From assembly GCA_040388625.1 (NCBI GenBank), contig JAZKBK010000005.1, positions 159,478 through 223,477 on the forward strand: a stretch of 64,000 nucleotides of DNA. The letters run 5' to 3'. The stretch is from Gemmatimonadota bacterium (lineage in GTDB: Bacteria; Gemmatimonadota; Gemmatimonadetes; Gemmatimonadales; Gemmatimonadaceae). Every line of letters starts with the position of its first letter. Within the stretch, counting starts at the first letter, position 1. Positions 8,996-27,884 of the stretch are shown one piece after another. A program made the position numbers and the translations under genes. The notes below the pieces were generated by a model. It made no database searches and had not been told where the DNA came from. It worked only from the letters and a program-made list of their open reading frames with translations.

Positions 8996-10870
8996 GTGCG
9001 ACGGAGCAAGGTCACCAACTGGTACAATTCTCCGGCTGTAATTCCCGGCCTGGCGACGGCCTTTGTCCTGGGTGGTCTCGCGGCATGGATCCTCAGGTTA
9101 CCCGTATGGGCCCATCACATATGGATGGCTGGGCTGGTTGCGGGTGGTGCAATCGTCGTGACGGGCACCATCCGCGGTGCGCTGCACGGCAGGTGGGCGT
9201 CGGACATCGTCGCGGCCATGGCGATCGTCACATCTGTCGTCATGGACCAGCCCCTGGCCGGCCTCATCGTGGTGGTAATGCAAACTGGCGGCGAGGCGCT
9301 CGAGCGATATGCGGAGGGTCGAGCATCGCGTGCGGTTCAGGAGCTCGAGGCGGATCGTCCCAAATCAGCCCACGTTCTGCGCGGCGGCGAAGTATCCGAT
9401 ATCAGAGCAGACGAGATTGTCGTCGGCGACAGGGTAATCGTACGCGCCGGCGAACTGATACCGTGCGACGGAATCGTCGAAGAGGGTAGATCCGAGCTCG
9501 ACACATCAAGGCTCACCGGTGAATCGCTGCCGCAGTCGATCGAGCCGGGCGTACCGGTCAGTAGCGGAAGCATCAACGGCGATCGGTTGTTCACGATGCG
9601 CGCCACTGCGATCGCCGAGGCCAGTCAGTATGAGCGCATCGTGCAGCTCGTTCGGGCGGCACTGGAAACCAAGGCGCCGTTTCAACGGATCGCGGATCGC
9701 TACGCCGTCTGGTTCACGCCAATCACGCTCGTGGTAGCTGTTGTCGCGGCGGCAACCACGGGAGACTATCAGAGATTCCTGGCGGTGCTCGTCGTCGCGA
9801 CACCATGCCCCCTCATACTCGCCCCGCCGATCGCGATAATCGGGGGAATCAATCGTGCGGCCCGGCGTCAGATAATCGTGCGCAACGGCGCGGCAATCGA
9901 GCGACTCGCGACCGCCAATGTTGCCGTGCTCGACAAGACCGGCACACTGACGATCGGAAAGCCCGTAGTTCATGCAGTCATTCCACATCCACCATTCTCG
10001 CGCGCAGACGTATTGCGTCTGGCCGGCGCCGTGGAGCAGGGCGCCGCCCATCTGCTCGCACGTACACTCACCGACGCAGCGAAGGCGGAGAATGCGTCTC
10101 TACCACCCGTTCGGGATGTCGTTGAAGCTCCCGGCCGCGGCGTCACCGGGAGTATCGGCGACGATACGGTGATGGTCGGCTCGCACGGTTTCATTGCTGA
10201 GCGTCTGACGCTGGACGCCGATAACTCGATTCCCGAGGATTCCTCCGTCGGACTCAAGGCGTATGTCGCGATCAATGGAAGATTCGCTGGCGTGGTGGCA
10301 TACGACGAGCAGCTGCGAGAGAGCGTGCCAGCAATTCTCTCCGATCTCGAGTCACTCGACATTCCACGCGTCCTGCTGCTGTCAGGCGATCACGGTGACA
10401 ATGCCCGTGCGATAGCAAAGTCGCTCGGCATTACCGAAGTTCGCGGCGATATGAAACCGGGAGACAAGGTTGATGTAGTAAAGGAGTTGACCGCAGCGGG
10501 TGCTCGCGTTCTGATGGTGGGTGACGGCACCAACGATGCACCGGCGTTGAGCGCCGCAACCGTCGGAATAGCGCTCGCAGGTCACGGCGGCGGTGTCACT
10601 GCGGAGGCAGCCGATCTCGTGATTCTGGTCGACGATCTGGGCCGCGTACCCGAAGCGATTCGCATCAGTCGCCACAGCATGAAGATCGCACGAGAAAGCG
10701 TCTGGGCCGGACTTGGGCTCAGTGGAATCGCAATGCTGTTCGCGGCCGCTGGCAAGATCGCGCCAGTGCCCGGCGCGCTGCTTCAGGAAGTGATCGACAT
10801 CGCGGTGATAATCAACGCACTACGCGCCAGTGCTGGCCCGCGACGACCCGTTCAGCGACCCATCAAGTAA
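8996..10870 (+). CDS. heavy-metal P1B-type ATPase with TPCP transmembrane motif (P1B-5-like); no N-terminal metal-binding domain and no hemerythrin domain
   Basis: Motifs LTGESLP, VATPCPLILAPP, DKTGTLT and GDGTNDAP. 624 aa, GTG start. Confidence 0.85.
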   Translation: MRRSKVTNWYNSPAVIPGLATAFVLGGLAAWILRLPVWAHHIWMAGLVAGGAIVVTGTIRGALHGRWASDIVAAMAIVTSVVMDQPLAGLIVVVMQTGGEALERYAEGRASRAVQELEADRPKSAHVLRGGEVSDIRADEIVVGDRVIVRAGELIPCDGIVEEGRSELDTSRLTGESLPQSIEPGVPVSSGSINGDRLFTMRATAIAEASQYERIVQLVRAALETKAPFQRIADRYAVWFTPITLVVAVVAAATTGDYQRFLAVLVVATPCPLILAPPIAIIGGINRAARRQIIVRNGAAIERLATANVAVLDKTGTLTIGKPVVHAVIPHPPFSRADVLRLAGAVEQGAAHLLARTLTDAAKAENASLPPVRDVVEAPGRGVTGSIGDDTVMVGSHGFIAERLTLDADNSIPEDSSVGLKAYVAINGRFAGVVAYDEQLRESVPAILSDLESLDIPRVLLLSGDHGDNARAIAKSLGITEVRGDMKPGDKVDVVKELTAAGARVLMVGDGTNDAPALSAATVGIALAGHGGGVTAEAADLVILVDDLGRVPEAIRISRHSMKIARESVWAGLGLSGIAMLFAAAGKIAPVPGALLQEVIDIAVIINALRASAGPRRPVQRPIK

Positions 10871-12279
10871 TCGATGACGTCGGACGCGGTGTACGTCGTA
10901 CGCGTGCCGAGGAAGTTCTGAATACCAAGCAGATCATCACCGCTCGTCAGCAGCGGCGGCTCCTCGATTCCGCCACCTCGCACCTGCGCCTGCCCGATGT
11001 TCGCTGTCAGTCCGTTGCAGAGACATTCACGACCCTCTGTGTCCGCGAGCGCGCCGCCCTTCTTGACGTACGCGTCCACCGGCTCGGCGGGACAGCGATA
11101 TCCAATGCGGCCATCCGCATCGCGATAGGCAGTGCGCAGATAGCCGAGATCGCATTTACGCTCACGACGCGGCCCGTCGGCGTTGTCGCCGACCCATCGC
11201 ACGACCTTGAAGGGATATCCTGTTGGCGACGCACGCGGATCCGTCACCACATCCAGGTCTCCCAGCGCTGCATGGGCCAGGACTTCCTTCTTGAGCGACT
11301 CAGCGATGCCAGATTCCTCGCAGTACGCGAATAGCGTTCCGACCTGAACGCCGGCCGCACCGGCGACAAGCGCGTCAACGAGTGCTTTCGGTGATCCGGC
11401 GCCACCCGCGATCCAGAACGGCAGACCGAGCTCGGCGATGCGTGCGATGTCGACGACGTCGCGCTCTCCATAGATCGGCTCGCCCCGCTCGTTCAGCTTC
11501 TGTTCACCTCTCGGTGGCGCGTTGTGGCCACCTGCGGTCGGACCTTCCACCACGAAACCATCCACGCGGCCGTTCGCCTTTCTGGCAAGCGTGGCTGCAA
11601 GCGACGTCGCCGCCACGATGGCGATGAATTTCGGCCGCTTCATCGGCATCGACTGGTCGACACCATGAGCCGCGGGATCGAAACTGAGAATTTCGGACTC
11701 CCCGGCCGGCATTCCCTCGACGTCGAATTTCATCGATGCAGTGCGATGCTCGGAGAGCGCGTCCAGCACGCCGGGGATCTCACGTGGGATTCCAGCGCCC
11801 ATCAACACGTAATCCACGCCAGCGAGCATTGCACCGCACAGCGACGCCAGATTTGGCAGCTGTACCTTGGCGAGAAGATTGACGCCGACCAATCCGTCGT
11901 GGCCTTCCCTGGCCAGATACACTTCGACGAAATTCGCGAGCATCGTGACCTGCTGGCGCGCGACGCTGACGTGTTGCTTGTACATCGGAAGCATCTTGTA
12001 CGGCTGAGCTGCTGCGCGACCATTCGGAAGGAAGTAGCGCTTGAGCGCATCCTCACCGACGTGGGCGATCGGAAAATGCTCGATCGCTCGCCGTATGTGT
12101 CCACCCGGATCGCCGTCCTGGAGTCGGCGCACGAAAACCGTATCGAGCGCAGTTCCCGAAACGACGCCAAGATGACCGGCGCGCGCAACGGCGCGCGCCA
12201 GAGGCCAGTTTGAAACACCGACTCCCATTCCACCCTGAATGATGGTCGGAAGCATGATGTTGCGCGGTACGGTAGTCAT
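10852..12279 (-). CDS. nitronate monooxygenase (2-nitropropane dioxygenase) family flavoprotein, long form
   Basis: N-terminus IIQGGMGVGVSNWPLARAVARAGHLGVVSG and TIM-barrel FMN-type motifs (PFWIAGGAGSP). The 3' end overlaps the ATPase 3' end by 19 nt (convergent). Confidence 0.75.
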   Translation of the reverse strand: MTTVPRNIMLPTIIQGGMGVGVSNWPLARAVARAGHLGVVSGTALDTVFVRRLQDGDPGGHIRRAIEHFPIAHVGEDALKRYFLPNGRAAAQPYKMLPMYKQHVSVARQQVTMLANFVEVYLAREGHDGLVGVNLLAKVQLPNLASLCGAMLAGVDYVLMGAGIPREIPGVLDALSEHRTASMKFDVEGMPAGESEILSFDPAAHGVDQSMPMKRPKFIAIVAATSLAATLARKANGRVDGFVVEGPTAGGHNAPPRGEQKLNERGEPIYGERDVVDIARIAELGLPFWIAGGAGSPKALVDALVAGAAGVQVGTLFAYCEESGIAESLKKEVLAHAALGDLDVVTDPRASPTGYPFKVVRWVGDNADGPRRERKCDLGYLRTAYRDADGRIGYRCPAEPVDAYVKKGGALADTEGRECLCNGLTANIGQAQVRGGGIEEPPLLTSGDDLLGIQNFLGTRTTYTASDVIDYLMGR

Positions 12280-12359: not shown

Positions 12360-14156
12360 TCACTTGCGCGACGGATCTGGCGCCGCCGTAAATACGAACG
12401 TTTTGACTATCGCGAATGCAAACAGCACGAGCAACACCGACTGAAGGGCAGTAGTCTCGACCGTGGGGAACACTCCCAGCCACGAAATGTCGGGTACGTG
12501 CGGCAACGGCGTCATCGGCAGCACGTTACCCTCCTGCAATTCCCGTATTCCGCGACCCGCGAACACGAACGCCATGTAGTACAACAGCAGGCTGGTTGCC
12601 GCGAAGAACGTCCGCATCGGAATCTTTACACCGAACCGGTAGAACAGCACGAATACGATGCCCAGCGCGACGGAGCCTGTGACAATTCCCAGCGTGAGCG
12701 GCAGCGCCGCGCCGTGTGCCTGACTGAACAGCGCCTGATAGAAGAGAGCTGTCTCTGCGCCCTCGCGGTACACCGCAAGGAATGCGATGAGCATCAATGC
12801 TCCGCCACTACCTTGCTCCAGCGCCAACGACACCTTCTCTCTGATGAACTTCTGCCATTTGTGCGCTTCGACCTTGGAGATCAGCCAGTAGCTGACGGAG
12901 AAGAGCACCACGACTGCAACCAGCAGCGATACCGCTTCGACGATTTCGCTGCTCGCTGGAATCGCGGCGAGCGCAGTCTTGAGGATCACCGCTGTTATCG
13001 CGCTGGCGACGACACCGAGTGCCGCGCCGATCCAGATGGAGCGCAACCGTTTACGGTTTCCGGTCTTGATGAGAAACGCGACTACGGCACCCACAACGAG
13101 TATCGCTTCGAATCCTTCTCTGAGGATTATGATGAACGATTGCCAGAACATCGTCACGGCACCTTCGTCACTTCCATTTGCGAGCGCCACCGCGCGCGGT
13201 AGTGTGTCTGCGATCTCGTTGCGAGCACGAGTCGCCGCAGCCGTATCACCGCCGCGCACGGCGACCCTGAACTCGCCGAACAAGCGCTCCAACAATGAAA
13301 CCAGTCGGGGGTCCTTCGCGCGCACGACAGTTTCGAGCGGCTCGAAGGCGAGATACGCGTCGAACGCTCCGTCGCTTGCCGTGGCGGCGTTTCCGCGCCT
13401 CGCCGATGCGAGCGAGCTGTCAAGCAATGCGACTATCGAGGCCGCGGTGCTGCTGGCACCGGCTCCAGCGCCGGCAGCCTGCGACGGGAGTGGCATCGGC
13501 TGTCCGCGCAGCTGGTACACATAGTTCACTACCTCCCATCGCTGCTGAGGAGTGAGCGATTCCCCGAACGGCGGCATGGCGGTGCCGTTGATGCCGACCG
13601 ACGTCACATTGTACGCAAGCGTCGGAGTCAGATTCGGGGTGCCCGCCGCGCTTCCGATCGCCGGCACAGCCGTGGACAGAGTCCGCGCCACGGGTCCGTC
13701 GCCGAGCCCGCGCGAGCCATGGCACGAAGCGCAGCTTTCCGTGAAAATCTGTCGCCCGACGGCGGTATCGAGTGGTGCGGACGGCAGCTCCAGTGCAGCT
13801 GCATCGCCCAGGGCCGAAAGCAACGAGGCCCGGTATTGCTCCAGAGCCGCCGGCGGTCGTTTCTGCTTCACGGCGTCGATCAGTTCCTGGAGTGCCGCGC
13901 TGGCGGCCGGAGCGTCCCGTCCCTCCAATCGGCCCGCGACCTCACTGGCGTTTTCCAGGAATCCGGCGACCTCGGCGTACTCCTCCGCCGAGATAAGCTG
14001 GCCTCGCTTGTCGACCGCCAGCCCGTACTCGGAGACTGCGACCGATACGATGCTCGCCAACCTTCTGGCGGCCGTATCCTGGGATCTCATGGTCGCTGGC
14101 GTAAGCCATAGTGAGGCGAGGGCGCAAAGGCACCCTACCCGCCGCTTGCAGTTCAT
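12360..14156 (-). CDS. cytochrome c - FTR1 (high-affinity iron permease) fusion protein
   Basis: N-terminal signal, haem-binding CASCH plus distal MPPF, then a 7-TM FTR1 part with two REGxE motifs (ILREGFEAIL, VYREGAETAL). Confidence 0.85.
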   Translation of the reverse strand: MNCKRRVGCLCALASLWLTPATMRSQDTAARRLASIVSVAVSEYGLAVDKRGQLISAEEYAEVAGFLENASEVAGRLEGRDAPAASAALQELIDAVKQKRPPAALEQYRASLLSALGDAAALELPSAPLDTAVGRQIFTESCASCHGSRGLGDGPVARTLSTAVPAIGSAAGTPNLTPTLAYNVTSVGINGTAMPPFGESLTPQQRWEVVNYVYQLRGQPMPLPSQAAGAGAGASSTAASIVALLDSSLASARRGNAATASDGAFDAYLAFEPLETVVRAKDPRLVSLLERLFGEFRVAVRGGDTAAATRARNEIADTLPRAVALANGSDEGAVTMFWQSFIIILREGFEAILVVGAVVAFLIKTGNRKRLRSIWIGAALGVVASAITAVILKTALAAIPASSEIVEAVSLLVAVVVLFSVSYWLISKVEAHKWQKFIREKVSLALEQGSGGALMLIAFLAVYREGAETALFYQALFSQAHGAALPLTLGIVTGSVALGIVFVLFYRFGVKIPMRTFFAATSLLLYYMAFVFAGRGIRELQEGNVLPMTPLPHVPDISWLGVFPTVETTALQSVLLVLFAFAIVKTFVFTAAPDPSRK

Positions 14157-14222: not shown

Positions 14223-14645
14223 TCAGACAGGGGTGGCTCCGGGCCGCCGCCGGGCGCCGTCGATGGTCCGCCAGATATTGTATACAAAACAGTATGCTGC
14301 GACGGCTGCCAGGACGCCTCCCGTGCCCAGCACGAACGGCGCAGCCGGCACTGCATTTGGCGCGAGGCAGAAGCCGATCACCATCAGCGCCAGACCTGCA
14401 TTGGCGAGCCACCATTGCACAGCTGCCACGCTCCGATTGTGCAACGGATGGCCAGTGAAACGCGGAATTACATGATATGCGACACCGTAAATCATCATCG
14501 TCACAAAGCCCAGCAGATTCATGTGAACGTGCGCAGGCCGGTAGATAATGAGTTGCGGATGCACGGCCATGGCGACACCAAGCGTTACGCCGAGTGCGAG
14601 CCAGGTGATGCTTGCCTTGAGAAACGCCTTTACGAACCACTCCAT
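14223..14645 (-). CDS. 4-TM membrane protein with HxH..L.GF motif, copy B
   Basis: 140 aa; TM2 reads AHVHMNLLGFVTMMIYGVAYHVIPRF. It aligns along its whole length with 1679..2143. Confidence 0.75.
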   Translation of the reverse strand: MEWFVKAFLKASITWLALGVTLGVAMAVHPQLIIYRPAHVHMNLLGFVTMMIYGVAYHVIPRFTGHPLHNRSVAAVQWWLANAGLALMVIGFCLAPNAVPAAPFVLGTGGVLAAVAAYCFVYNIWRTIDGARRRPGATPV

Positions 14646-14809
14646 TTACACAATTGCGTGTGAGTGAGATACATCTGCTGCTTGTGACGCAACTTACGTG
14701 GACGAGGAATTGATCGGTGTCGGCGTTTCCCTGAAGTGAGCGCGGCGATCTCCCGACACGGAATCCTGCGTCAGCGCACCGTGGCAGAACTTCTTTGTTC
14801 TGGTCTTCT

Positions 14810-15058
14810 CTAATCCCGGGCTGCGTCGACTGGGGCGAGCAAGGCTGTCCACAATCCTACGCGCTCGGCTGTAATCGCGTTTGGCGGCTCGAGCCGGTAC
14901 CGTGTGGGAACAGAACCGATCGGCCAACCAGCGAGGTAATCCTGTACTGTACCGGACACACCACTCCCACGCGCTTCCCGGACTGCGCGCGTGGGGTAGT
15001 GCACCATGATCTCTCCGCCACGAGCGGTGTAGCCAAGTCCCGTGGAATCAATCAGCAT
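14810..15058 (-). CDS. hypothetical 82-aa protein (weak call)
   Basis: The only sizeable same-strand ORF in the 434-nt gap of the operon. It starts 21 nt after the DUF2249 stop. No recognisable motif, and third-position GC looks lower than in neighbouring genes. Confidence 0.25.
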   Translation of the reverse strand: MLIDSTGLGYTARGGEIMVHYPTRAVREARGSGVSGTVQDYLAGWPIGSVPTRYRLEPPNAITAERVGLWTALLAPVDAARD

Positions 15059-15079
15059 ACGAGAACCTTGCGCTGACGA

Positions 15080-15334
15080 TCACTTCCGGGCAATCTGCAC
15101 GCGCCAGATTTCCGGTCCCTGTGCCTGATACGTCCACTCGAAAGTACCGGGATGCTCCGCTTCGAGCTGATACCGAAGCGGACGCGGATCGTGGTCGTTG
15201 ATGAGAATCATCGACTCCCCTTTCTTGAGACCCTCGAACGCGCGGAAGATGGTGGGATGCTTGTCGCGCGGAGGAATGACGCGAACGTCGAGCTCTATCG
15301 GGCTGGTGGACTGTGCTGCAGTTGACTGTGACAC
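15080..15334 (-). CDS. DUF2249 domain protein
   Basis: 84 aa: ELDVRVIPPRDKHPTIFRAFEGLKKGESMILINDHDPRPLRYQLEAEHPGTFEW, the typical single-domain DUF2249 pattern. Confidence 0.8.
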   Translation of the reverse strand: MSQSTAAQSTSPIELDVRVIPPRDKHPTIFRAFEGLKKGESMILINDHDPRPLRYQLEAEHPGTFEWTYQAQGPEIWRVQIARK

Positions 15335-15389
15335 GTATTACTCCTGATAGGAAAATTGGTATCTGTCGTTAATGGTGTGATTTCGCCTG

Positions 15390-16271
15390 CTATGCGTTGC
15401 GCCAGATTCTCACCTGGACTTCGCTGGTCTCTGGTTCGTCTATGATGAAGTGAAATCCTCGCTCTCTCAGGATTGGTAGAAGGAACTGTGGGACACGCTG
15501 ATTGACCTGGACCAGCATGCTATCAACAGGCAGCGTCTCGAGCGCTTCCAGCGTGCGCACCAGTGGCTCTGGAGGTTCGAGGTCGCGGACGTCGAGCCAC
15601 ACTTCCGTCCGTGCCGTGACACGGTTGTCCGCGCTGTCGCTCATCACGATTCGTGGTGCGACAGGTGCCGACGCCGTTGCTGGTGCCGTTGCTGGTGCCG
15701 TTGCTGGTGCCGTTGCTGGTGCCGTTGCCGAGGGCTCGATTGGTTCCTTTCGCCGAAAGAACCAGACCGACCAATCATCATCGGCATGCTGCTCGACCTT
15801 GTGACCAAAGCCGCGCTTCTCCATCACTCCGAACAGCGGCACCGGCTCGAATGGGGCACGTAGATGCAATACCGCGTCATCACCGAGCCCAGCGACAGCA
15901 GCCATGATTCGCGAGAACGGCTCACCTCCCTTCTTGAGCTCATCGCGCACGTCCAGCTCGACGACGGATGTGAACGGGGGCAAGGGGGTCGAATCGTCCG
16001 ATGTTGCCGCGACCGGACTTGCGGAAATACTTGCGCCTCCGATTCCGAGTACGCCGTTGAGCTCGTTTACGAGAGACTCGACGTTCATCTTGCAGACGCG
16101 AGCTGCCTGTGCCACCGTGGTCACACGGGCCATTATCCGGCGCATCGGCGAATGACGCAATTTCGCCAGTTGCGGTGAGTGGCTCGCTATGACGTCGATC
16201 AAACGCTCGTCGCGCTCGAACAGGCTCTGCAGCTTGTCCGACGCCTGTACAGGGGTAATGCTCGTATTCAT
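15390..16271 (-). CDS. DUF1858-like N-terminal domain plus two DUF2249 domains, with an (ATAP)n linker
   Basis: Start at ATG 16271 (MNTSITPVQ), overlapping the upstream stop as ATGA. The two domains begin VELDVRDELKKGGEPF... and VWLDVRDLEPPEPLVRTLEALETL... The 180-aa Arg-rich extension in the ORF track is rejected. Confidence 0.8.
   Translation of the reverse strand: MNTSITPVQASDKLQSLFERDERLIDVIASHSPQLAKLRHSPMRRIMARVTTVAQAARVCKMNVESLVNELNGVLGIGGASISASPVAATSDDSTPLPPFTSVVELDVRDELKKGGEPFSRIMAAVAGLGDDAVLHLRAPFEPVPLFGVMEKRGFGHKVEQHADDDWSVWFFRRKEPIEPSATAPATAPATAPATAPATASAPVAPRIVMSDSADNRVTARTEVWLDVRDLEPPEPLVRTLEALETLPVDSMLVQVNQRVPQFLLPILRERGFHFIIDEPETSEVQVRIWRNA
15673..15729. repeat. 12-nt tandem repeat GCCGTTGCTGGT x4.5 encoding the (ATAP)n linker
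   Basis: Direct reading of 15673..15732; it encodes PATAPATAPATAPATAPATA on the minus strand. Confidence 0.9.
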
Positions 16272-17674
16272 CTCGATGCCTTCGTGATTGTGGGTTGCAC
16301 GCTCGCCGAGCCTATGCCTCTGAACGATGTGGCAAGCGCCACGCGTGCTATCTGACTCACGAACAGCGCTACGGCGGACGCTACCAGGATCGCTGCGATC
16401 CGGACCACTGGCGAAATGCCCGTTACGACACCTGTAACCATGCCGAGACTGCCGATAGCGAATAACGCGAGATCGATGTGCGCCACGAGCGGGGAATACA
16501 GCTCCGCCACGGTCGGAACACGCTTCTTTCCCATCTCGTTGCGGAAGCGTGCCATCCAGGCGAGGAACGGCACGATCTTGTAGAACTGCCCGATCACATA
16601 GAGTGTGAGGCCGCCGAGCAGGCCCAGCATCACGTAGGCAGTATCGAGTCGACGGTACTCCGGGCCTAAGGCCAGAACTACCGGAGCCAGTGCGGCAGTC
16701 GCCGCGAGAAAGATGAGAGCGGTGCCAGCATGTCGCAGTCCCGCGTCGAGTCGCGGCCGCTTGCGTGCTCTGAAAAAGAGCCACGCCTGTCGGAGAAAGC
16801 AGAATATTCCGCATTCAATCAACAGGAGCCCCAGCCACACGACGACGCTGGATCTGACGCTGTGGCCGACCAATATCCCCGGTGCCAGAAGCAGGACGCC
16901 AGCCGTGAGCAGCGTGAGTGCGCGAGCCGTCCATCTCGTATCGGCGCCGTGCGCCAGGAGAAACATCGGCAGGAGGCGATGTGATATACCGACGATCATC
17001 ACCAGAACCCATCCGATCAGCGCGACGTGGAGATGCGTCGCGAGCACGGTGACGCGCCAGTCGCCGAGGAATCCGGTGTGCAGATTCTGCGAGAGTATGG
17101 CACCAATGCCGAACGTCACGGTGAGAAACGAGAGTGCTATCACGATCGCACTCCATATCACGTCGCGATCGGCCACTCTGCGCAGCGACAGCGCGACATT
17201 TACGATGAGACACGTGACGCCGATCGCTATCAGCGTGATTCCGGAGTTGCGGAGCATCACCGAGCTGAATGCGACTCCGGACGCAAACAGTGCGACACCG
17301 GGCGCGAAGGCGCAGAAGCTGACGTGTCCGGCGCGCTCCGATCTGATCGATACACCGAGTGCGACTGGCAGCAGTTGGTACATCGCCCCGAAGATCGTCA
17401 TGCTGAGCCAGCCGAGCGTGAAGCAATGTGTCACGCCGGCGACATGCGGAGAGAGATACAGACCGGCGGCGAGCTCCGGCGCGATCCAGATGAGTCCGAT
17501 GCAGCCTGTGCACAGGAAGAGCAGCGCGGCCGCGAAGTGCTCGCCGGGAAGGCGTAGCGACGGAGCGCCTTCCATTGCGAGCGCCGCCATCCCTGGCGCA
17601 CGTGGTGGTGCTGACCGCGCGGACCAGGCTGGAGCGCGCGCCGCGATGCGCGGTACCGGTGGAGCGGCACTCAC
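16268..17674 (-). CDS. 12-TM integral membrane protein built from three 4-TM repeats, with NnrS-like / haem-copper-oxidase-like His motifs (family uncertain)
   Basis: 468 aa with about 12 hydrophobic helices. Motifs are VTHCFTLGWLSMTIFGAMYQLLP, THLHVALIGWVLVMIVGISHRLLP and YVMLGLLGGLTLYVIGQFYKIVP. The GTG start overlaps the mrp stop as GTGA. Confidence 0.8.
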   Translation of the reverse strand: MSAAPPVPRIAARAPAWSARSAPPRAPGMAALAMEGAPSLRLPGEHFAAALLFLCTGCIGLIWIAPELAAGLYLSPHVAGVTHCFTLGWLSMTIFGAMYQLLPVALGVSIRSERAGHVSFCAFAPGVALFASGVAFSSVMLRNSGITLIAIGVTCLIVNVALSLRRVADRDVIWSAIVIALSFLTVTFGIGAILSQNLHTGFLGDWRVTVLATHLHVALIGWVLVMIVGISHRLLPMFLLAHGADTRWTARALTLLTAGVLLLAPGILVGHSVRSSVVVWLGLLLIECGIFCFLRQAWLFFRARKRPRLDAGLRHAGTALIFLAATAALAPVVLALGPEYRRLDTAYVMLGLLGGLTLYVIGQFYKIVPFLAWMARFRNEMGKKRVPTVAELYSPLVAHIDLALFAIGSLGMVTGVVTGISPVVRIAAILVASAVALFVSQIARVALATSFRGIGSASVQPTITKASR

Positions 17675-18783
17675 TCTGCGACTGCCTCGCCTTGCGCGAG
17701 CTGCCAGCCAAGCGCGTTGACGACTCTGTGCGCGATCGCGTCGAAGCTTCTGGCGAACTCGCTGTCGCCTCGCGTGATTACAGTCGGAGTGCCTGCGTCT
17801 CCCTCGCCCACCGCCAGTGCATCGAATGGGACTGTTCCGAGCAGCGGCACGTTCAGCGCGGTCGCGACGATGTTACCGCCGCCGCTGCCAAACGCGCCTG
17901 ACATGTTTTCCACGACGCCCAGTACGGGCACATCCAGCTTCGCGAACATGTCTCCCGCCTTCTGCGCCTCGACAGCTGCGAGCCGTTGCGGTTGCGTGAC
18001 AACGATTGCACCGGATACTTCGACGGCCTGCACGAGACTGAGCGGAATGTCGCCCGTGCCCGGCGGCAGATCGACGACGAGTACGTCGAGCTGCGGCCAT
18101 TCCACTCCACGCGCGAACTGCTTCACCGCCTTCGATACCATGGGGCCGCGCCAGATCGCCGGCGACCCCTCGCCCAGGAAGAAACCAAAGCTGATGAGCG
18201 TGAGTCCCAGCACCTCGACCGGAATTATGTGCTTGTCGGCGGTCACGCGAACCTGTTGCGCGCCGTTCTCGATTCCGAGCAGGATCGGCACACTGGGGCC
18301 GTAGATATCGGCGTCGAGAAGGCCGACCACGAATCCCGCGCGAACGAGCGCAAGGGCAAGGCTGACTGCGACCGTACTCTTTCCAACGCCGCCCTTTCCC
18401 GCGCCGACGGCGATGATGTCGCGGACGTTGCTCAGTCTGACGCGGTCCGCCCATGGGTCCGGTACTCCGGCGCGAGCGTGTCCGGAGTCAGGAGCGTGCG
18501 GAACTGGCCTGGTCGGTGGATCCGGTTTGACTATCTCGACCGTGACGAGTGTCGCGCCCATTGCGGAGAGGCGATCCCGGACCGCGACGCTGAGCCGCTC
18601 GGGGATGGACTCGTCCGTGGTGCGGAGCCCCAGCTGAACCTTGACCTGGGTCCCGCACACGGAGACGTGCTTCACCATCCCGAACGACACGACATCGCGC
18701 GTCAGCCCGGGGTAGTGAACGTCTCCGAGCGCGCTGCGTACCTTATCAACGTCGAGCTCGATATCTGGCTCAGCTGTTGCCAT
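17671..18783 (-). CDS. mrp: Mrp/ApbC/NBP35-family Fe-S cluster carrier ATPase with N-terminal DUF59 domain
   Basis: IIAVGAGKGGVGKSTVAVSLALAL deviant Walker A, an N-terminal VHYPGLTRDVVSFGMV segment, and CPxC-less Mrp architecture. 370 aa. Confidence 0.88.
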   Translation of the reverse strand: MATAEPDIELDVDKVRSALGDVHYPGLTRDVVSFGMVKHVSVCGTQVKVQLGLRTTDESIPERLSVAVRDRLSAMGATLVTVEIVKPDPPTRPVPHAPDSGHARAGVPDPWADRVRLSNVRDIIAVGAGKGGVGKSTVAVSLALALVRAGFVVGLLDADIYGPSVPILLGIENGAQQVRVTADKHIIPVEVLGLTLISFGFFLGEGSPAIWRGPMVSKAVKQFARGVEWPQLDVLVVDLPPGTGDIPLSLVQAVEVSGAIVVTQPQRLAAVEAQKAGDMFAKLDVPVLGVVENMSGAFGSGGGNIVATALNVPLLGTVPFDALAVGEGDAGTPTVITRGDSEFARSFDAIAHRVVNALGWQLAQGEAVAE

Positions 18784-18844
18784 GCCAGCACGCTAGCTTG
18801 ACTCCATCTGGCGAGGTGTGACGGATGTCTCAGGAAGACGAGCG

Positions 18845-20071
18845 ATGAGCGATCATGTAGTTGGTTCTGCAGCCCGCGCGAGGGTTCTGCACGAAACGCT
18901 GGCGACACAGTTTCCAGCGTCATTGTTCCAGTTCGATGCGCGAATGGCGGACGGATACTACTCCGACCGCTATTTCGTTCTGACCGCGAAGACCATATCG
19001 CACGCCGGGCTCGATCCGATTGTCACCATGCAGGTGTTTGCAAAACAACAGGGGATCCTTGCTGGCGTTTACGAAGCGCTTCGAATACTGCAGACTCAGC
19101 TCGCGATCAATCCGCGTACCGGAGTTCGCTACGACTTCGCCGAGCTCACGATCGATACGCTCGTGGATGGCGACGTCGTCGTTCCGTGGGAGCCGGTCAT
19201 GCACATCACCGGTCCCTACCTTGCGTTCGCGCATCTGGAAACCGATTACCTGGGCGTGATCGCAAGGCGCACATTGATCGCAACCAACGTGCGACGTGTC
19301 ATCGACGCTGCCAACGGTAAGCCTGTCATCTTCATGGGTGCCCGGCACGACGACTGGCGCGTGCAGACCGCGGACGGATTCGCGGCGAAGATTGGTGGCA
19401 TCGCCAGCGTCTCCACGGATGCGAATGGCGCGTGGTGGGGCGGTGGTGGCGTCGGCACGATGCCACACTCGATGATCGCGTCGTTTGGTGGCGACGTGGT
19501 GCGCGCGACACTTCAATTCGCACGATACTGTCGCGAAGCAGCGCTGAACATCGACGTCGTGAGTCTTACCGATTATCACAACGATGTGATCGGCGACTCG
19601 CTCGCAGTCGCGCGCGCAATGCGCGATGAGTTTGGCGACGGCGCGCTTTGGGGTGTGCGCGTCGATACGAGTGAGAAGCTCGTCGACAGGTCGCTCGAGG
19701 CGCAGGCGATGCGCTTTCCGGAACGACGGCTCAATGGAGTGTGCCCGGAGCTGATCGTTCTGCTGCGGTCGGCGCTCGATGCCGAAGGGTTCCGGTACGT
19801 CAGGATCGGCGTGTCCGGCGGATTCCACGGGCGGAAGATCGAGCGCTTCGAGACGGACCATGTTCCCGTGGACTTCTACGGGGTGGGGAGCTCCCTCCTT
19901 GGTCACAATAACGGTGATATCGACGGCCTCGCGAACAACTTCGACTTCACCGCGGACGTAGTTCGCCTCGATGGGAACGCCGAGAGCAAGGTGGGCAGGG
20001 AGGAACGCGGCAACGCGAGGTTCATACGGGTGGATCACGACCGGCTCGAGCGCACAACTGCCGCGCGATGA
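18845..20071 (+). CDS. nicotinate/nicotinamide phosphoribosyltransferase family protein
   Basis: ADGYYSDRYF..., GILAGVYEA..., GTMPHSMI and VRVDTS motifs of type II PRTases. A GTG at 18818 is an alternative start. Confidence 0.75.
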   Translation: MSDHVVGSAARARVLHETLATQFPASLFQFDARMADGYYSDRYFVLTAKTISHAGLDPIVTMQVFAKQQGILAGVYEALRILQTQLAINPRTGVRYDFAELTIDTLVDGDVVVPWEPVMHITGPYLAFAHLETDYLGVIARRTLIATNVRRVIDAANGKPVIFMGARHDDWRVQTADGFAAKIGGIASVSTDANGAWWGGGGVGTMPHSMIASFGGDVVRATLQFARYCREAALNIDVVSLTDYHNDVIGDSLAVARAMRDEFGDGALWGVRVDTSEKLVDRSLEAQAMRFPERRLNGVCPELIVLLRSALDAEGFRYVRIGVSGGFHGRKIERFETDHVPVDFYGVGSSLLGHNNGDIDGLANNFDFTADVVRLDGNAESKVGREERGNARFIRVDHDRLERTTAAR

Positions 20072-23521: not shown

Positions 23522-25411
23522 TCACTCAGTGGCTGTTTCGACTTCCTCGTCCAGGGGAGAGCAGAGCCACGCATACAACCCGACGGTGAAGATTGCACCG
23601 CCAAGCAGCATGAGCCACAGCTGCTCGTGCCAGATGAGGCCGATGAATGCGATGGTAATCCCAGCAGCGGTAATCAGCGGCTTGACCGTGCCTGCTGGTA
23701 CGTCGATCCCGAGCTCCGCGGCTGTTGATTCAGTCTCGTGCTGGTATGGCGCGGCGCCACTGGCGATCGGGTGGCCATTTCTGTCCCACAATGGATATCG
23801 TGACTCGATGGTCGGCACCACAGCGTAGTTATAGACTGGTGGCGGCGATAGCGTGGACCACTCGATCGTCGGTGCGCCCCATGGGTTGTTGCCTGCGATC
23901 GCCCCATGCCGGCGACTTCGCAGAACGTTGATCACGAAGATCAGCGTCGCTACGGCGATGATGTACGCGCCGATCGTCGATATCTGGTTGTCCAGCGTGA
24001 TCCCCTGTGCGGCGTCGTACGTATACACTCGCCTCGGCATCCCGTTGAGGCCGGCGAAGTGCATGGGGAAGAAGGCGAGGTTCGCCCCGATCAGCGTCAA
24101 CCAGAAATGCCATTTGCCGAGTGGCTCGTCGAGCAGGTGACCGGTCACCTTGGGGAAGTAGTAGTAGAAGCCCGCGAACAATCCCATCATTGTTCCGCCG
24201 AACAGCACGTAGTGAATGTGCGCGACGACAAAGTACGTGTCGGTTTGCTGCAGATCGGTAGGCGCCGATGCGTGCATGACACCGGAAATTCCGCCAATGG
24301 TGAACATCCCGACCAGCCCCAGCGCGAAGAGGCACGCGGTGGCGAAACGGATCGAGCCGCTCCATACGGTCCCCAGCCAGTTGAAGATCTTGATTCCTGT
24401 CGGGATCGCGATCAGCATCGACGTAACGCTGAAAGTCGCATCGGCGACCGGCCCCATGCCGACGGCGAACATGTGGTGCGCCCAGACACCGAACGCGAGA
24501 AATCCGATCAGTATCAACGAATACACCATCGCAGGATATCCGAACAGCGGCTTGCGCGCGAAGGTCGGCAGCACTTCAGAGACCAGGCCGAACGCCGGGA
24601 GAATCAGGATGTACACTTCCGGATGGCCGAACAGCCAGAACAGGTGCTGCCACAGCAGCGGGTCGCCACCGGCCGCGGGTTCGTAAAACTGCGTCCCGAA
24701 GAATCGGTCGAACAACAGAAATGTCAGCGCGACTGTCAGGACCGGAAACGAAACCAGAATCAGGAACTGAGTGACGAATGCTGACCACGTGAATACCGGC
24801 AGCCGCATCATGCGCATGCCGGGCGCACGCATGTTGATGATGGTCGTGATGAAGTTGAACGATGAGGCAAGCGTGGACAGTCCCAGGATCTGCAGTCCGA
24901 TCACATAGAAGTCCATGTTGAGGCCCGGATTGTACAACCGGGTGCTCAGCGGCGCATATCCGAACCATCCGCCGTTTGGCGCCGCGTTCCACAGCCAGCT
25001 CGCGTTGATGAAGAGTCCACCGAGCAGATAGACCCAGTAGCTGAACGCGTTGAGCCGCGGAAAGGCGACGTCGCGCGCGCCGATCTGAAGCGGGACCAGG
25101 ATGTTGAAGAAGGCCGCGCTCAACGGCATGAGAGCCATGAATATCATGGTCGTGCCGTGCATCGTGAATATCTGATTGTACAGCTCGGCGGACACCAGTC
25201 GACCATTTGGTCCAAAGAGCTGCGCGCGGATTACCAGCGCTTCGATTCCACCGAGCAGGAAGAACGTGAGCGAAGTGTAGAGGTACAGCTGGCCAATTCG
25301 CTTGTGGTCGGTGGTGGAGAGCCAACTCCAGATACCGCTTCGTTCTTTCCTTTCTACGTGCGGCGCACCATCCACAGACGTTCGTGGAGGAGCGGTCACC
25401 GTCGTTGCCAT
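23522..25411 (-). CDS. ctaD: haem-copper oxidase subunit I (A-type cytochrome c oxidase CtaD/CoxA), 14-TM form
   Basis: TTDHKRIGQLYLY, FWLFGHPEVYILILPAFG, WAHHMF and HYVLFGG motifs, plus a C-terminal extension with two extra helices. Start at MATTVTAPP (ATG 25411). Confidence 0.9.
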   Translation of the reverse strand: MATTVTAPPRTSVDGAPHVERKERSGIWSWLSTTDHKRIGQLYLYTSLTFFLLGGIEALVIRAQLFGPNGRLVSAELYNQIFTMHGTTMIFMALMPLSAAFFNILVPLQIGARDVAFPRLNAFSYWVYLLGGLFINASWLWNAAPNGGWFGYAPLSTRLYNPGLNMDFYVIGLQILGLSTLASSFNFITTIINMRAPGMRMMRLPVFTWSAFVTQFLILVSFPVLTVALTFLLFDRFFGTQFYEPAAGGDPLLWQHLFWLFGHPEVYILILPAFGLVSEVLPTFARKPLFGYPAMVYSLILIGFLAFGVWAHHMFAVGMGPVADATFSVTSMLIAIPTGIKIFNWLGTVWSGSIRFATACLFALGLVGMFTIGGISGVMHASAPTDLQQTDTYFVVAHIHYVLFGGTMMGLFAGFYYYFPKVTGHLLDEPLGKWHFWLTLIGANLAFFPMHFAGLNGMPRRVYTYDAAQGITLDNQISTIGAYIIAVATLIFVINVLRSRRHGAIAGNNPWGAPTIEWSTLSPPPVYNYAVVPTIESRYPLWDRNGHPIASGAAPYQHETESTAAELGIDVPAGTVKPLITAAGITIAFIGLIWHEQLWLMLLGGAIFTVGLYAWLCSPLDEEVETATE

Positions 25412-25541
25412 GCGTCCATCCCGTGTGCGAAATGGGCAGAGCTCGAAGTGGTGATGCACGGACCATTTCGGCAGTGCCTCCGACGCAGTCTAGGACGATG
25501 GACGGTCGCTTGATGTGACTTATGTCACGTTTCGCGAGTAC

Positions 25542-26264
25542 CTATCTCCCTTGAGCGCGCGCTCGCAGCTTTGCAACATCAGGAATCCGCATCCGCCCGC
25601 GCGGGAGCGATTCCACCAGCCCGGTGCGCTTCAACTGCCGCATCGCGCGTGAAACCGATTCCCGGGCGCTGCCTATCTCCATCGAGAGCTCTTCCTGCGT
25701 ACGATCGAGCTTGATCTCGATTCCGAACTGAGTGTGCGTGCCCGATCTTTCCGCATATCCGACGAGCAGCATCGCCAGCCGCGCGGCTACATCGTGGAAC
25801 GCAAGCGTCTCCGTCACGTGAACGAGGTGCCGGAGGCGCTTGCCGAGTGCGCGAATTATCGCCTGGGCTATGTCCGGATGCTCGCGGTACATCATTTCGA
25901 AATCATCACGCGCGAGAAACATCAGACGTGACGGCTCGACGGTAATCGCCGACGCGGGGTACGGGCCCCCGTCGAACAGTGGCAGCTCGGCGACAGGACG
26001 TCCGGGGCCCTCGATGTGCAGTACCTGCTCCTTGCCGTCCGGGCTCGTGCGATAGATACGCACTCGTCCCGACTGGATCACGTAGAGGCCGCGGCAGGTA
26101 TCGCCAGCGGTAAAGAGCACACGGCCGGCGCCGAAGTCGCGCGCGACACACCGGGCTGCGAGCTGGTGAATTGCCGAGTCTTCGAGTTCCGAGAAGATCG
26201 CCATCTGCCTGAGCAGATGGGTGATCCCGGTTGACGACTCGTCAGTCGATTTTTCCCGTATCAT
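25542..26264 (-). CDS. Crp/Fnr-family transcription regulator (no Fnr-type Cys cluster)
   Basis: cNMP-binding-like domain (GDTCRGLYVIQSGRVRIY) plus C-terminal HTH (TQEELSMEIGSARESVSRAMRQL). ATG 26264 overlaps the upstream stop as ATGA. Confidence 0.85.
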   Translation of the reverse strand: MIREKSTDESSTGITHLLRQMAIFSELEDSAIHQLAARCVARDFGAGRVLFTAGDTCRGLYVIQSGRVRIYRTSPDGKEQVLHIEGPGRPVAELPLFDGGPYPASAITVEPSRLMFLARDDFEMMYREHPDIAQAIIRALGKRLRHLVHVTETLAFHDVAARLAMLLVGYAERSGTHTQFGIEIKLDRTQEELSMEIGSARESVSRAMRQLKRTGLVESLPRGRMRIPDVAKLRARAQGR

Positions 26265-27040
26265 GGGGCGCCGATTCGGAGCGGCGACCACGATGGAGGA
26301 TCGCTGGCCGGGAAGCTGTCGATGGTGCTGTCACGGAATATTTCGCGCGTATCGTGCACACGACGTTGCTCGATCGCGCTGTCAAACAACGCACGGGTGG
26401 AGTCCGTGCAACTGTCTCCGACGCAGGTGAGCGGCGGTACCGAAACGATTCTGCGGTTCCGGACCCTGGCCATCGCGAGTGGCGTGCGCAGACGCGTGCC
26501 GTCCTGCAGCATCATGGTTGGCGTCCCGCGGACGTGATATTCCTCCCGACCGATCCTGCCCTCCTCGGCGACTGCGGCACGTGCGGCCGGACTGGCGAAG
26601 TCACGCTCGAATCGTGCGAAGTCGAGATCGGCAGCGCGTGCCAGCTCCAGCAACACACTGCGGTCGCCGATGTTGCGGCTCTCGCCGAAGAAGGCGCGCC
26701 GTACCGCGAGATCGAGACCCATGGCGATATTCATCCCCTGTTGCCGCGCTGCCCACACGGCTTCGAACGCCGGGAGAGTGGTCGCAGGCCAGTCAGGTGC
26801 AGTATAGGGGACGAAAGATGCGCCTGGCTCCTGTATCGCCGCGAGCCACCATTCCTGCTCCAGCACGTCGCGCGGGGGTGCCTCGTGATTGAACAGCTCC
26901 AGCGGGAAGAAACGCGTATATGCCAGAACGCGGCCGGCGTACTCCGGCTGAACGCGATGCACGCGGACAGCCATCACGTAGCACCAGGGGCAATAGTATT
27001 CAGCCCATTCCCACAATTCCGCGATCGATCGATCACTCAT
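26261..27040 (-). CDS. cytoplasmic DsbA/FrnE-like thioredoxin-fold oxidoreductase
   Basis: CPWC active site near the N-terminus (WAEYYCPWCYV) and no signal peptide. GGGAGG lies 8 nt upstream of ATG 27040. The C-terminal tail ends ...DSFPASDPPSWSPLRIGAP. Confidence 0.7.
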   Translation of the reverse strand: MSDRSIAELWEWAEYYCPWCYVMAVRVHRVQPEYAGRVLAYTRFFPLELFNHEAPPRDVLEQEWWLAAIQEPGASFVPYTAPDWPATTLPAFEAVWAARQQGMNIAMGLDLAVRRAFFGESRNIGDRSVLLELARAADLDFARFERDFASPAARAAVAEEGRIGREEYHVRGTPTMMLQDGTRLRTPLAMARVRNRRIVSVPPLTCVGDSCTDSTRALFDSAIEQRRVHDTREIFRDSTIDSFPASDPPSWSPLRIGAP

Positions 27041-27125: not shown

Positions 27126-27141
27126 TGTGACAATAATCACG
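27126..27141. promoter_or_regulatory. CRP/FNR-type box TGTGA-N6-TCACG
   Basis: TGTGACAATAATCACG matches TGTGA-N6-TCACA at 9 of 10 positions. It lies 86-101 nt upstream of the dsbA-like/crp/ctaD operon and 113 nt upstream of the divergent DUF59 gene. Confidence 0.45.
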
Positions 27142-27253: not shown

Positions 27254-27565
27254 ATGGAGACACATAACGCAGCCGAAGGCGACATCTGGAACGCGCTACG
27301 TACCGTTATCGATCCGGAAATCGGTCTCGATATCGTTACGCTGGGCCTTGTATATGATGTCGCCGTCGGCACCGATTCCGCGGTGCCTGGCGAGACTATC
27401 CGCGTCACGCATACACTCACCACGCCCGGATGCCCCATGGAACGTATAATCACGTCCGGCATTCGCTCGGCGGTGGGTCGTGTTCCCGGTGTTGTGGCGG
27501 TGGAGACGAACCTGGTGTGGGATCCCATGTGGCACTCCGGGATGATCGCACCGGGTGCGTGGTGA
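27254..27565 (+). CDS. DUF59 (SufT/PaaD-like) Fe-S assembly family protein
   Basis: IWNALRTVIDPEIGLDIVTLGLVYDV...LTTPGCPM is the classic DUF59 signature. 103 aa. Confidence 0.85.
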   Translation: METHNAAEGDIWNALRTVIDPEIGLDIVTLGLVYDVAVGTDSAVPGETIRVTHTLTTPGCPMERIITSGIRSAVGRVPGVVAVETNLVWDPMWHSGMIAPGAW

Positions 27566-27584: not shown

Positions 27585-27651
27585 CTGACAGAACCGCGCT
27601 CGCGCTGTTGCTGGCATCGGATGCCAGCGCTGCGAGCGGCGGTTCTGTCAG
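27585..27651. terminator. long nested hairpin between convergent genes
   Basis: Outer arms CTGACAGAACCGC / GCGGTTCTGTCAG (13 bp), inner arms GCTCGC/GCGAGC and GCTGGCATC/GATGCCAGC. The right arm contains the DUF3565 stop codon. Confidence 0.5.
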
Positions 27652-27884
27652 ATGATTCCAGCTTCGCGCGGGTCGCAGCACTTGACGCATTCGAGCGTCT
27701 TGCCCAGGAAAGTCGCGCGGCCCGATTCAGTCGTGACCCAGGTTCTGACCTGCCACGGTGGGTCGTGCCGCACGTGTTGTGTGTGCCCGCACTCGAGATC
27801 GGCGACCCAGTGGTTCTCTTCATCCTGATGGAATCCGATTATCCGTCTTGGAATCGCCGACCCCGCGCATGCATCCCGCTGCAT
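27648..27884 (-). CDS. DUF3565 domain protein (Cys/His-rich)
   Basis: IGFHQDEENHWVADLECGHTQHVRHDPPWQVRTWV matches the DUF3565 core; C-terminal CVKCC. It starts 31 nt downstream of nirK on the same strand. Confidence 0.75.
   Translation of the reverse strand: MQRDACAGSAIPRRIIGFHQDEENHWVADLECGHTQHVRHDPPWQVRTWVTTESGRATFLGKTLECVKCCDPREAGII

Follow-up and report, generated by a model that had tools for sequence, protein, structure and literature searches.

A conserved denitrification accessory operon of Gemmatimonadota containing a haem-copper oxidase subunit I homologue

On the minus strand of a 64,000-nucleotide (nt) stretch of a Gemmatimonadota genome (contig JAZKBK010000005.1, positions 159,478–223,477, of assembly GCA_040388625.1; hereafter the window), a packed run of genes at positions 14223–18783 brings together an Mrp-like ATPase, a membrane protein with 12 transmembrane (TM) helices and two DUF2249 proteins. 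Do these proteins form a functional unit, and what might it do? The comparative analysis reported here gives good support to a four-gene unit, mrp*-hnh12-drpB-drpA, as a Crp/Dnr-type-regulated, translationally coupled denitrification accessory operon, and equally good support to its content being orthologous to the drp-HNH-DUF59 cluster of Thermus and to a rhizobial module beside nnrS/nirK. The 12-TM protein, referred to here as HNH12, is a homologue of subunit I of haem-copper oxidases and nitric oxide (NO) reductases (NOR), and it is very probable that the operon products assemble into a complex on the cytoplasmic side of this haem-type membrane protein.

Five open reading frames (ORFs) lie at the coordinates given for them in an earlier reading of the locus made from the DNA letters alone (the sequence-only reading). 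The Mrp-like gene (17671–18783, minus strand as for all five; 370 amino acids, aa) is followed by the 12-TM gene (16268–17674; 468 aa, GTG start), the drpB-like gene (15390–16271; 293 aa if translated from the ATG at 16271), the drpA-like gene (15080–15334; 84 aa) and a gene for a 4-TM protein (14223–14645; 140 aa). The mrp-like/12-TM junction is a GTGA overlap (17671–17674) and the 12-TM/drpB junction an ATGA overlap (16268–16271). A spacer of 55 nt (median 55.5 nt in relatives) separates drpB from drpA, and the 434-nt gap described earlier before the 4-TM gene is present (14646–15079).

Scanning one genome per species recovered 80 loci with relatives of the 12-TM protein, all in Gemmatimonadota and 50–96% identical to it; adjacency was counted at loci where the contig leaves room for the neighbour. 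The conserved unit comprises the mrp-like, 12-TM, drpB-like and drpA-like genes and is intact in about 60–70 of the 80 genomes. The mrp-like gene lies directly upstream of the 12-TM gene at 67 of 75 loci (70 of 75 when overlapping neighbours are included), the drpB-like gene lies directly downstream of it at 67 of 69 (68 of 69 on the same basis), and the drpA-like gene adjoins next at 59 of 62. The comparison of gene order across related genomes proposed in the sequence-only reading thus finds the four-gene set conserved together at most of the 80 loci. The described packing and its two overlaps also hold in relatives: the Mrp/12-TM junction overlaps at 63 of 68 loci, by 4 nt at 41 of them, and the 12-TM/DrpB junction at 65 of 69, by 4 nt at 54. 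Overlaps kept across 80 related genomes are not due to chance. The conserved 4-nt overlaps support translational coupling, and conservation of the upstream one supports the GTG as the true 12-TM start codon. The 4-TM gene, which had been counted with the operon, is instead a variable satellite that adjoins it in some genomes only.

In one metagenome-assembled genome (MFD09603.bin.2.52; loci L008 and L009), several cluster genes are broken by apparent frameshifts. An apparent 12-TM–DUF2249 fusion of 645 aa (P0043), from the same assembly as the frameshifted L008, was discounted as a probable assembly artefact. The Gemmatimonadota arrangement, with its Mrp variant fused to DUF59, its operator and its gene order, is new; the kinds of component were already known and are biochemically unsolved.

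Upstream of the operon is a perfect CRP-type operator, TGAGACATCCGTCACA (18817–18832), centred 41.5 nt upstream of the Mrp-like ATG. The motif, TGAGAC-ATCC-GTCACA, reads TGTGA-N6-TCTCA on the other strand, one base off the Escherichia coli CRP consensus. Two heptamers, TGAGACA and CCGTCAC, emerged from a de novo k-mer count in 58–59 of 72 regions upstream of mrp, and TGTGAC-N4-GTCACA, allowing one mismatch, occurs at 90 sites in 1.03 Mb of related loci, where about 3 are expected by our own estimate. Nearly all 90 sites lie upstream of mrp, of crp, or of hnh12 where mrp is missing; the variant upstream of crp is CGTGAC-NNTT-GTCACA. Two further sites in the window are an operator-like sequence before an orphan CtaD-like gene (25514–25529; one mismatch to the palindrome, two to the mrp-type site) and a candidate operator between dsbA-crp and a stand-alone DUF59 gene (27126–27141; two mismatches). 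An FNR box (TTGAT-N4-ATCAA) was set aside and the CRP-type motif adopted instead: the window holds 22 matches against 14.6 expected, none of them in the relevant intergenic regions, and upstream of mrp in relatives the box occurs at 5 of 73 loci against a control rate of 7%.

The Crp-family regulator of the window (25542–26291, minus strand; Pfam cNMP_binding and HTH_Crp_2) shows no FNR-type Cys cluster; its recognition helix, RESVSR, is CRP-like. Its gene lies on the same strand within 500 nt upstream of the operon at 30 of 67 loci; in this window the oxidase gene, a TonB-dependent receptor gene and a block of NAD-salvage genes separate the two. The listed GTG start of a divergent phosphoribosyltransferase-like gene (QRPTase_N, 18818–20071, plus strand) overlaps the conserved operator, and its true start is probably the ATG at 18845 (MSDHVVGS...).

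HNH12 falls outside every Pfam family, its match to COX1 being weak (17.4 bits against a cut-off of 34.8), and its relationships emerge from the predicted structure. The AlphaFold2 model (predicted local distance difference test (pLDDT) 79.8, predicted TM-score (pTM) 0.81) finds cbb3 CcoN as its best Foldseek match (3mk7, E 1.8e-7, TM-score 0.69), followed by NorB (3o0r, 4xyd) and subunit I of aa3 and ba3 oxidases, with TM-scores of 0.63–0.69 and a probability of 1.00 for 3mk7, 3o0r and 4xyd. No other fold is found at E 0.05, the next matches being membrane pyrophosphatases with a TM-score of about 0.2. The protein described in the sequence-only reading as a 12-TM His protein is accordingly present, and the fold match identifies it. 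It has the 12-TM fold of subunit I, within which hhalign detects an internal unit resembling the 4-TM protein (three-fold pseudosymmetry). Like CcoN and NorB, it appears from topology inference to have cytoplasmic termini and histidines toward the periplasmic side; it differs from them in sequence, with an identity of 12–14%, and in its metal ligands, of whose six canonical histidines it keeps at most two. Searched as a profile against PDB sequences, HNH12 matched no oxidase, and its hhalign comparison with the CtaD-like protein of the window was non-significant. Nor is HNH12 an NnrS: it has no PF05940 match, and hhalign against NnrS of Mesorhizobium loti gave a probability of 0.1. The family is large, with 2,892 clusters at 50% identity (E ≤ 1e-3), or 1,766 at E ≤ 1e-10. 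At NCBI, a protein from a Gemmatimonadota bacterium that is 100% identical to HNH12 bears the name 'hypothetical protein'.

Within Gemmatimonadota three histidines of HNH12 never vary (H83, H214 and H216), and another four (H46, H117, H232 and H242) almost never do. In an alignment of eight distant taxa, which joins HNH12 to homologues from Natrinema, Halogeometricum, M. loti, Sinorhizobium meliloti, Rhizobium etli, Aliarcobacter and Thermus, H83 (TM2) and H214 (TM6) are the only invariant histidines. Positive-inside analysis predicts an N-in/C-in topology that would place H83 and H214 a few residues from the periplasmic helix ends, as in oxidase haem ligands. The six-histidine set for two haems and CuB/FeB is missing, and no three-histidine CuB/FeB site is evident. 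We infer that HNH12 holds one bis-His b haem and no CuB/FeB site; with two universal histidines only and no such site, it is probably not a catalytic oxidase or NOR. The lineage-specific H46, H117, H232 and H242 cluster at the predicted cytoplasmic face. Other phyla mostly have Tyr or another residue at these positions (H242 is His in 3 of 7 distant homologues), and the four could make up a metal site particular to this lineage, close to the docking face.

The Mrp-like protein belongs to PF10609 (2.7e-79) and carries an N-terminal DUF59 domain (PF01883, 9e-7). Its Walker A motif, GKGGVGKS, is at least 90% conserved, as expected of a ParA/NUBPL-type P-loop domain, whose Walker A is deviant, and family, Walker A and N-terminal DUF59 are shared with bacterial Mrp. 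It scores below the curated equivalogs (ApbC, 258 bits against 348; MrpORP, 232 against 450). The closest solved relative is PDB 8zkc (E 1e-63); compared with it, the protein has a deletion of 11 residues that takes away the CxxC, the motif by which Mrp, ApbC and NBP35 hold a bridging [4Fe-4S] cluster. None of 69 orthologues has the CxxC and most have a single Cys, which here is C43. In the DUF59 domain, the Cys of the canonical TTxxCP is replaced ('RTTDESIP'), with H39 conserved in 90% and C43 in 96%. The sequence-only reading had called this protein an Mrp/ApbC Fe-S carrier ATPase with DUF59; family and domain stand, but the cluster-carrier motif is gone. PDB matches include 3vx3, a CxxC-less Mrp/MinD-type archaeal HypB of the Ni-chaperone type and a precedent for a metallochaperone partner; by this comparison, the Mrp-like protein resembles HypB more than a cluster carrier in lacking the CxxC. 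DUF59 is fused to the Mrp ATPase only in Gemmatimonadota, which also keep a stand-alone DUF59. In the window this second gene (27254–27565, plus strand; PF01883 at 3.8e-17) retains the canonical TTPGCP Cys and is 39% identical to the Thermus DUF59 encoded beside the HNH gene; it is divergent from crp at no fewer than 55 of the 80 related loci.

The two DUF2249 proteins are orthologues of Thermus DrpA and DrpB. The 84-aa protein (PF10006, 6e-31) is 61% identical to DrpA of Thermus thermophilus over all 72 residues (E 1e-34) and conserves His33 (KHP) and His55 (NDHDP) of the DrpA-type consensus, ELDVR-IPPR-KHP...NDHDP...GPE-WRV; its N-terminus has no hydrophobic signal-like segment. The 293-aa protein, with a DUF1858 domain (31.9 bits, cut-off 32.2) followed by two DUF2249 domains, is 31.5% identical to DrpB over the full length (E 1e-33). 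Its AlphaFold2 model (pLDDT 83) combines a helical DUF1858 domain with two domains of the TusA/SirA fold, matching 3hz7 (TMt 0.76, root mean square deviation 1.8 Å), TusA itself (3lvj, TMt 0.76) and, in 8k1r, TusA-like YeeD in its complex with the membrane protein YeeE. A sub-threshold match to TusA (PF01206, 4.9e-5) points the same way. By our reading of the motifs, the CPxP that holds the catalytic Cys of TusA is absent: DrpB has 'GGEPF' and 'EPPEP', and the DrpA KHP sits at the position of the TusA Cys. The DrpB family has no invariant Cys or His. A PDB sequence search returned no solved DrpA or DrpB (DUF2249) homologue. Rhizobial DrpA-like proteins (L089, 5575–5859; L087, 5641–5922) end in a GCDCCCGSH tail that hints at metal binding and is found in neither Gemmatimonadota nor Thermus.

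Orthology with Thermus matters because it brings published genetics (PMC6282519) to a family that the sequence-only reading had fairly described as having no defined biochemistry. According to the searched text of PMC6282519 and PMC7694296, drpAB is induced by anoxia and nitrate through the Crp-family regulator DnrT, and is treated as a bicistronic nitrate sensor. In these accounts, the nar and dnr promoters are constitutive without DrpB; in the drpAB double mutant, nar/dnr expression is nitrate-independent and NarG is made, with nitrate reductase about 10-fold less active. The genes downstream of drpB are not discussed in that text. In T. thermophilus JL-18 the order is narGHJI, a transporter, drpA, drpB, a 4-TM homologue, protoglobin, HNH (383 aa) and DUF59. 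Both systems thus pair, in a nitrogen-oxide respiration cluster, a single-domain DUF2249 protein carrying KHP and NDHDP with an adjacent gene of the same DUF1858–2×DUF2249 architecture, and both depend on or are linked to a Crp-family regulator; the Thermus cluster also has a 4-TM oxidase homologue, an HNH homologue and a DUF59 gene. They differ in order (drpA-drpB-mini-protoglobin-HNH-DUF59 against mrp-hnh12-drpB-drpA), in the protoglobin gene, which the Gemmatimonadota operon is without, and in the joining of DUF59 to a CxxC-less Mrp ATPase, unlike in Thermus. Outside bacteria, all four DUF2249 genes of Haloferax are induced under denitrification, and one of them encodes a fusion of a P-loop Fe-S carrier with DUF2249 (PMC11218638).

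A tblastn search of plasmids added 107 records with distant HNH12 homologues (25–30% identity). On S. meliloti pSymA and R. etli p42f, DUF2249, HNH, 2×DUF2249 and DUF59 genes stand beside nnrS, nirK and hemN, with norQD-type genes also on p42f; M. loti has NnrS, HNH, 2×DUF2249, DUF1858 and Crp/Fnr genes; an Aliarcobacter plasmid has a weak DUF2249 match, HNH and DUF59; and in haloarchaea HNH lies near DUF2249 together with ric (Natrinema) or cupin genes (Halogeometricum). The families previously noted as neighbours of NO-stress genes do recur beside NO and denitrification genes across phyla, with nirK, nnrS, nar and nor among the neighbours. These repeated neighbours mark DUF59 as a conserved partner family of HNH12. 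A literature search under the locus tags of the S. meliloti module genes found no papers.

Fusions tie the same partners together. Three separate clusters join DUF59 to the C-terminus of HNH12, one of them in three independent assemblies, and HNH12 fused to DUF2249 and ScdA_N also occurs; a further candidate, an Mrp fragment joined to HNH (P0456), is doubtful as a fusion. To judge from these sequences, the fusions appear to confirm a physical linkage at the cytoplasmic face, and the C-terminal position of DUF2249 and DUF59, with the signal-less N-terminus of DrpA, would place the DUF2249 proteins in the cytoplasm.

How might such a complex work? HNH12 would be a non-catalytic relative of NorB and CcoN with one b-type haem held between His83 of TM2 and His214 of TM6, near the periplasmic face. 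Its conserved basic cytoplasmic loops and C-terminus may dock the DUF2249 proteins, the ScdA_N-like DUF1858 domain and the DUF59 domain, which in this lineage is part of the CxxC-less Mrp/MinD-type ATPase; YeeE–YeeD (8k1r) is a solved precedent, in which a membrane protein carries a docked TusA-like partner. The Crp-family regulator would switch the operon on under denitrifying conditions. At the inner membrane face, the complex would then protect, repair or deliver Fe-S and haem centres against NO, as NnrS and RIC/YtfE do, and its state would feed back on Crp/Dnr regulators; such feedback would account for the regulatory phenotype seen when drpAB is mutated in Thermus. The ATPase would give nucleotide-driven exchange of partners, carrying no cluster itself. 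We tentatively favour this reading: under NO, the complex would protect, repair or mature the iron centres of denitrification enzymes, with the ATPase as a nucleotide switch. The sequence-only reading had suggested membrane-associated delivery or repair of Fe-S, haem and Cu centres under denitrification stress; the link to NO and iron centres remains plausible, but delivery to Cu centres finds no support.

Two known systems are instructive. NnrS, a membrane protein that contains haem and is controlled by NnrR/Dnr, is reported to shield the iron pool from dinitrosyl-iron formation (PMC11526790); HNH12 is likewise a 12-TM putative haem protein in an NO and denitrification context, but is without a detectable sequence relationship to NnrS. 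Proteins of the RIC/YtfE/ScdA type share with the module a helical domain of the ScdA_N/DUF1858 type and the same NO and denitrification context. They differ in that the module is without their hemerythrin-like di-iron domain, and here the redox partner would be a membrane protein.

Several observations weigh against the protection and repair of iron centres. With no invariant Cys or His in DrpB and neither the CxxC nor the DUF59 Cys in the Mrp-like protein, direct carriage of a cluster or metal is doubtful. The haem binding proposed for HNH12 is inferred from two histidines. The operator scan of the window found no site upstream of nirK, nosZ or the 4-TM gene. The searched text of the Thermus papers favours a sensor role and reports DrpA as periplasmic, in conflict with docking on the cytoplasmic side.

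That sensor role underlies the strongest alternative, a pure signalling device in which HNH12 is a membrane haem sensor of NO, another nitrogen oxide or redox state, and DrpB and DrpA relay its signal to Crp/Dnr through direct contact between proteins, as proposed for the Thermus pair as nitrate sensors, with no repair or maturation chemistry. The promoter phenotypes reported in the searched Thermus text, constitutive nar and dnr without DrpB and loss of nitrate dependence without both proteins, are what such a device would produce. The presence of crp beside the operon in many genomes, with operators before both crp and mrp as in a feedback circuit, fits as well, as do the absence of metal-type invariant residues from DrpB and the protoglobin-domain gene within the Thermus cluster. 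Signalling alone, however, leaves the DUF59 partner and the Mrp ATPase unaccounted for, both being of metallocentre-assembly families, and gives no reason for the 10-fold drop in nitrate reductase activity that the Thermus mutant shows at a normal NarG level. The domain search also found no DNA-binding or phosphotransfer domain in any component. We regard a pure sensor as possible but unlikely.

A role in assembling haem-copper oxidases or NOR is quite improbable. HNH12 would here be a scaffold or chaperone for haem or metal insertion, for example into the orphan A-type cytochrome c oxidase subunit I of the window (23522–25459, minus strand; 645 aa; CtaD_CoxA equivalog, 714 bits against 671), with the ATPase and DUF59 driving hand-over. 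The subunit I fold of HNH12, the related operator before this CtaD-like gene, its synteny with the operon in the closest relatives, and hemN and norQD beside the rhizobial module are all in keeping with it. Most of the 80 genomes, though, have no oxidase gene adjoining the operon, the nearby oxidase or NOR varies among Thermus, rhizobia and Aliarcobacter, and we know of no precedent for a subunit I paralogue acting as an assembly chaperone. The orphan CtaD gene itself comes immediately after crp, and its synteny extends to L002, L006, L008 and L009; among the scanned ORFs flanking it (Crp upstream, a TonB-dependent receptor downstream) there is no subunit II.

Least likely of all is a catalytic HNH12 that turns over NO or another nitrogen oxide and fills the NorB gap between NirK and NosZ, an idea encouraged by the extra conserved histidines of the Gemmatimonadota form (H216, H232, H46, H117 and H242), by its HxH in TM6, which is like that of oxidase helix X, ligand to two haems, and by the finding of no NorB or NnrS homologue in the window beside NirK and NosZ, but contradicted by the two universal histidines, by the want of an evident three-histidine CuB/FeB site, and by homologues coexisting with canonical norCB in rhizobia and Thermus, while the window is 64 kb of the genome and a nor gene may lie elsewhere.

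A bolder reading would make HNH12–DrpB–DrpA–DUF59(–Mrp) a hitherto unrecognised membrane machine, with an oxidase-like haem protein as its centre for redox or NO handling, that processes NO-damaged iron (dinitrosyl-iron, nitrosylated Fe-S), a membrane counterpart of RIC/YtfE, or else have the His-enriched HNH12 itself turn over NO in Gemmatimonadota with NirK and NosZ and without NorB. We consider this a long shot; if true, the Thermus "nitrate sensors" DrpA and DrpB would become subunits of that machine.

The 4-TM protein is a single-unit oxidase homologue. It matches COX1 (1.7e-8, 34.2 bits) at profile positions 344–399, the helix-X region, and aligns by hhalign to TM2–4 of HNH12 (probability 94%), with H41 opposite H83. 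Its H39-x-H41...H58 reads as a motif spaced like the oxidase HFH...H, the comparison being with bovine helix X. Its 2,147 homologues are often annotated 'cbb3-type cytochrome oxidase subunit 1', and both 4-TM proteins of the window have sub-threshold matches to NnrS (PF05940; 19 and 24.7 bits against a cut-off of 28). Pei, Li, Kinch and Grishin (2014, Protein Sci 23:1220) reportedly described families of HCO/NOR homologues (HNH), among them NnrS and other 12-TM proteins as well as 4-TM proteins that are single "evolutionary units". HNH12 and the 4-TM proteins resemble these families as three-unit and one-unit relatives of subunit I with reduced histidines in denitrification and NO contexts; in HNH12 the two universal histidines fall in units 1 and 2. 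Both the HNH12 kind and those families are linked to DUF2249, a link of DUF2249 to the haem-copper oxidase superfamily for which PMC11218638 cites Pei et al. 2014.

The placement of 4-TM genes varies. The type found here follows drpA only in the closest relatives (L001 and L002), a paralogous type follows drpA in L004, L008, L009, L011 and L023, and in L066 both types lie shortly beyond drpB, on the other strand. The drpA/4-TM gap is 82.5% identical to that of L001 and half deleted in L002. Variable placement and a poorly conserved gap together make the 4-TM gene a recurrent satellite and not a member of the operon. Locus L001, whose 12-TM protein is 96% identical, has an extra 309-aa ORF (10985–11917) between drpA and the 4-TM gene. 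Neither the operon nor the 434-nt gap gave a match in Rfam, promoter and terminator scans, and the operator scan found no site in the gap. An ORF within it (14810–15058) was considered as a hidden ScdA_N gene and rejected: the similarity reaches an E of about 0.8 only, and the ORF is half deleted in L002 and not conserved.

A second cassette, divergent from nosZ, occupies positions 1679–2831 of the window and was recognized by tblastn, ORF and Pfam/NCBIfam searches. It consists, on the minus strand, of an ScdA_N gene (2565–2831), a cupin gene (2206–2565) and a 4-TM oxidase homologue (1679–2143). This ScdA_N-[cupin]-4-TM arrangement is the usual setting of 4-TM genes elsewhere, beside NirK-like or Rrf2 genes (unrelated metagenome contigs L081–L083), and it adjoins DUF59/crp at many Gemmatimonadota loci. 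It also qualifies the earlier statement that no hemerythrin domain occurs in the window. A tblastn search with a RIC protein, a limited test, matched only the ScdA_N part (2664–2756) and no hemerythrin-type domain; an ScdA_N gene is nevertheless present.

The window as a whole is a denitrification island, with nosZ, nosD, nosF, nosY, a P-type ATPase, an NMO-like gene, a cytochrome c-FTR1 gene, NirK, the Crp-family regulator and the orphan CtaD; the nirK, nosZ, cytochrome c-FTR1 and DUF59 genes listed as surroundings in the sequence-only reading are all there. The cytochrome c-FTR1/EfeU fusion (12360–14156, minus strand) follows the 4-TM gene after 66 nt, and the NMO-like gene (10852–12279, minus strand) follows 80 nt later. 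This trio is kept in L001 and L002; at other loci NMO adjoins mrp, with an operator upstream. Directly downstream of nirK lies a gene for a small DUF3565 protein (27648–27884, minus strand; PF12088, 6.7e-31).

Though it has no Pfam model, the 12-TM family is a large one, and its members keep the same small partners in denitrifiers of the Gemmatimonadota, Deinococcota, Alphaproteobacteria, Campylobacterota and Halobacteria. DrpA and DrpB are the sole members of the set with genetics, in which the 10-fold loss of nitrate reductase activity in Thermus is unexplained. The link to DrpA and DrpB, with the fusions to DUF59, DUF2249 and ScdA_N, turns an old "known unknown" of denitrification and NO tolerance into a testable hypothesis, for which T. 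thermophilus, S. meliloti and R. etli are tractable model organisms. What emerges is a widespread known unknown made more testable, and not a categorically new system. Within the Gemmatimonadota, the conserved CRP-type operator delimits a small regulon and helps to interpret soil metagenomes related to nitrous oxide (N2O).

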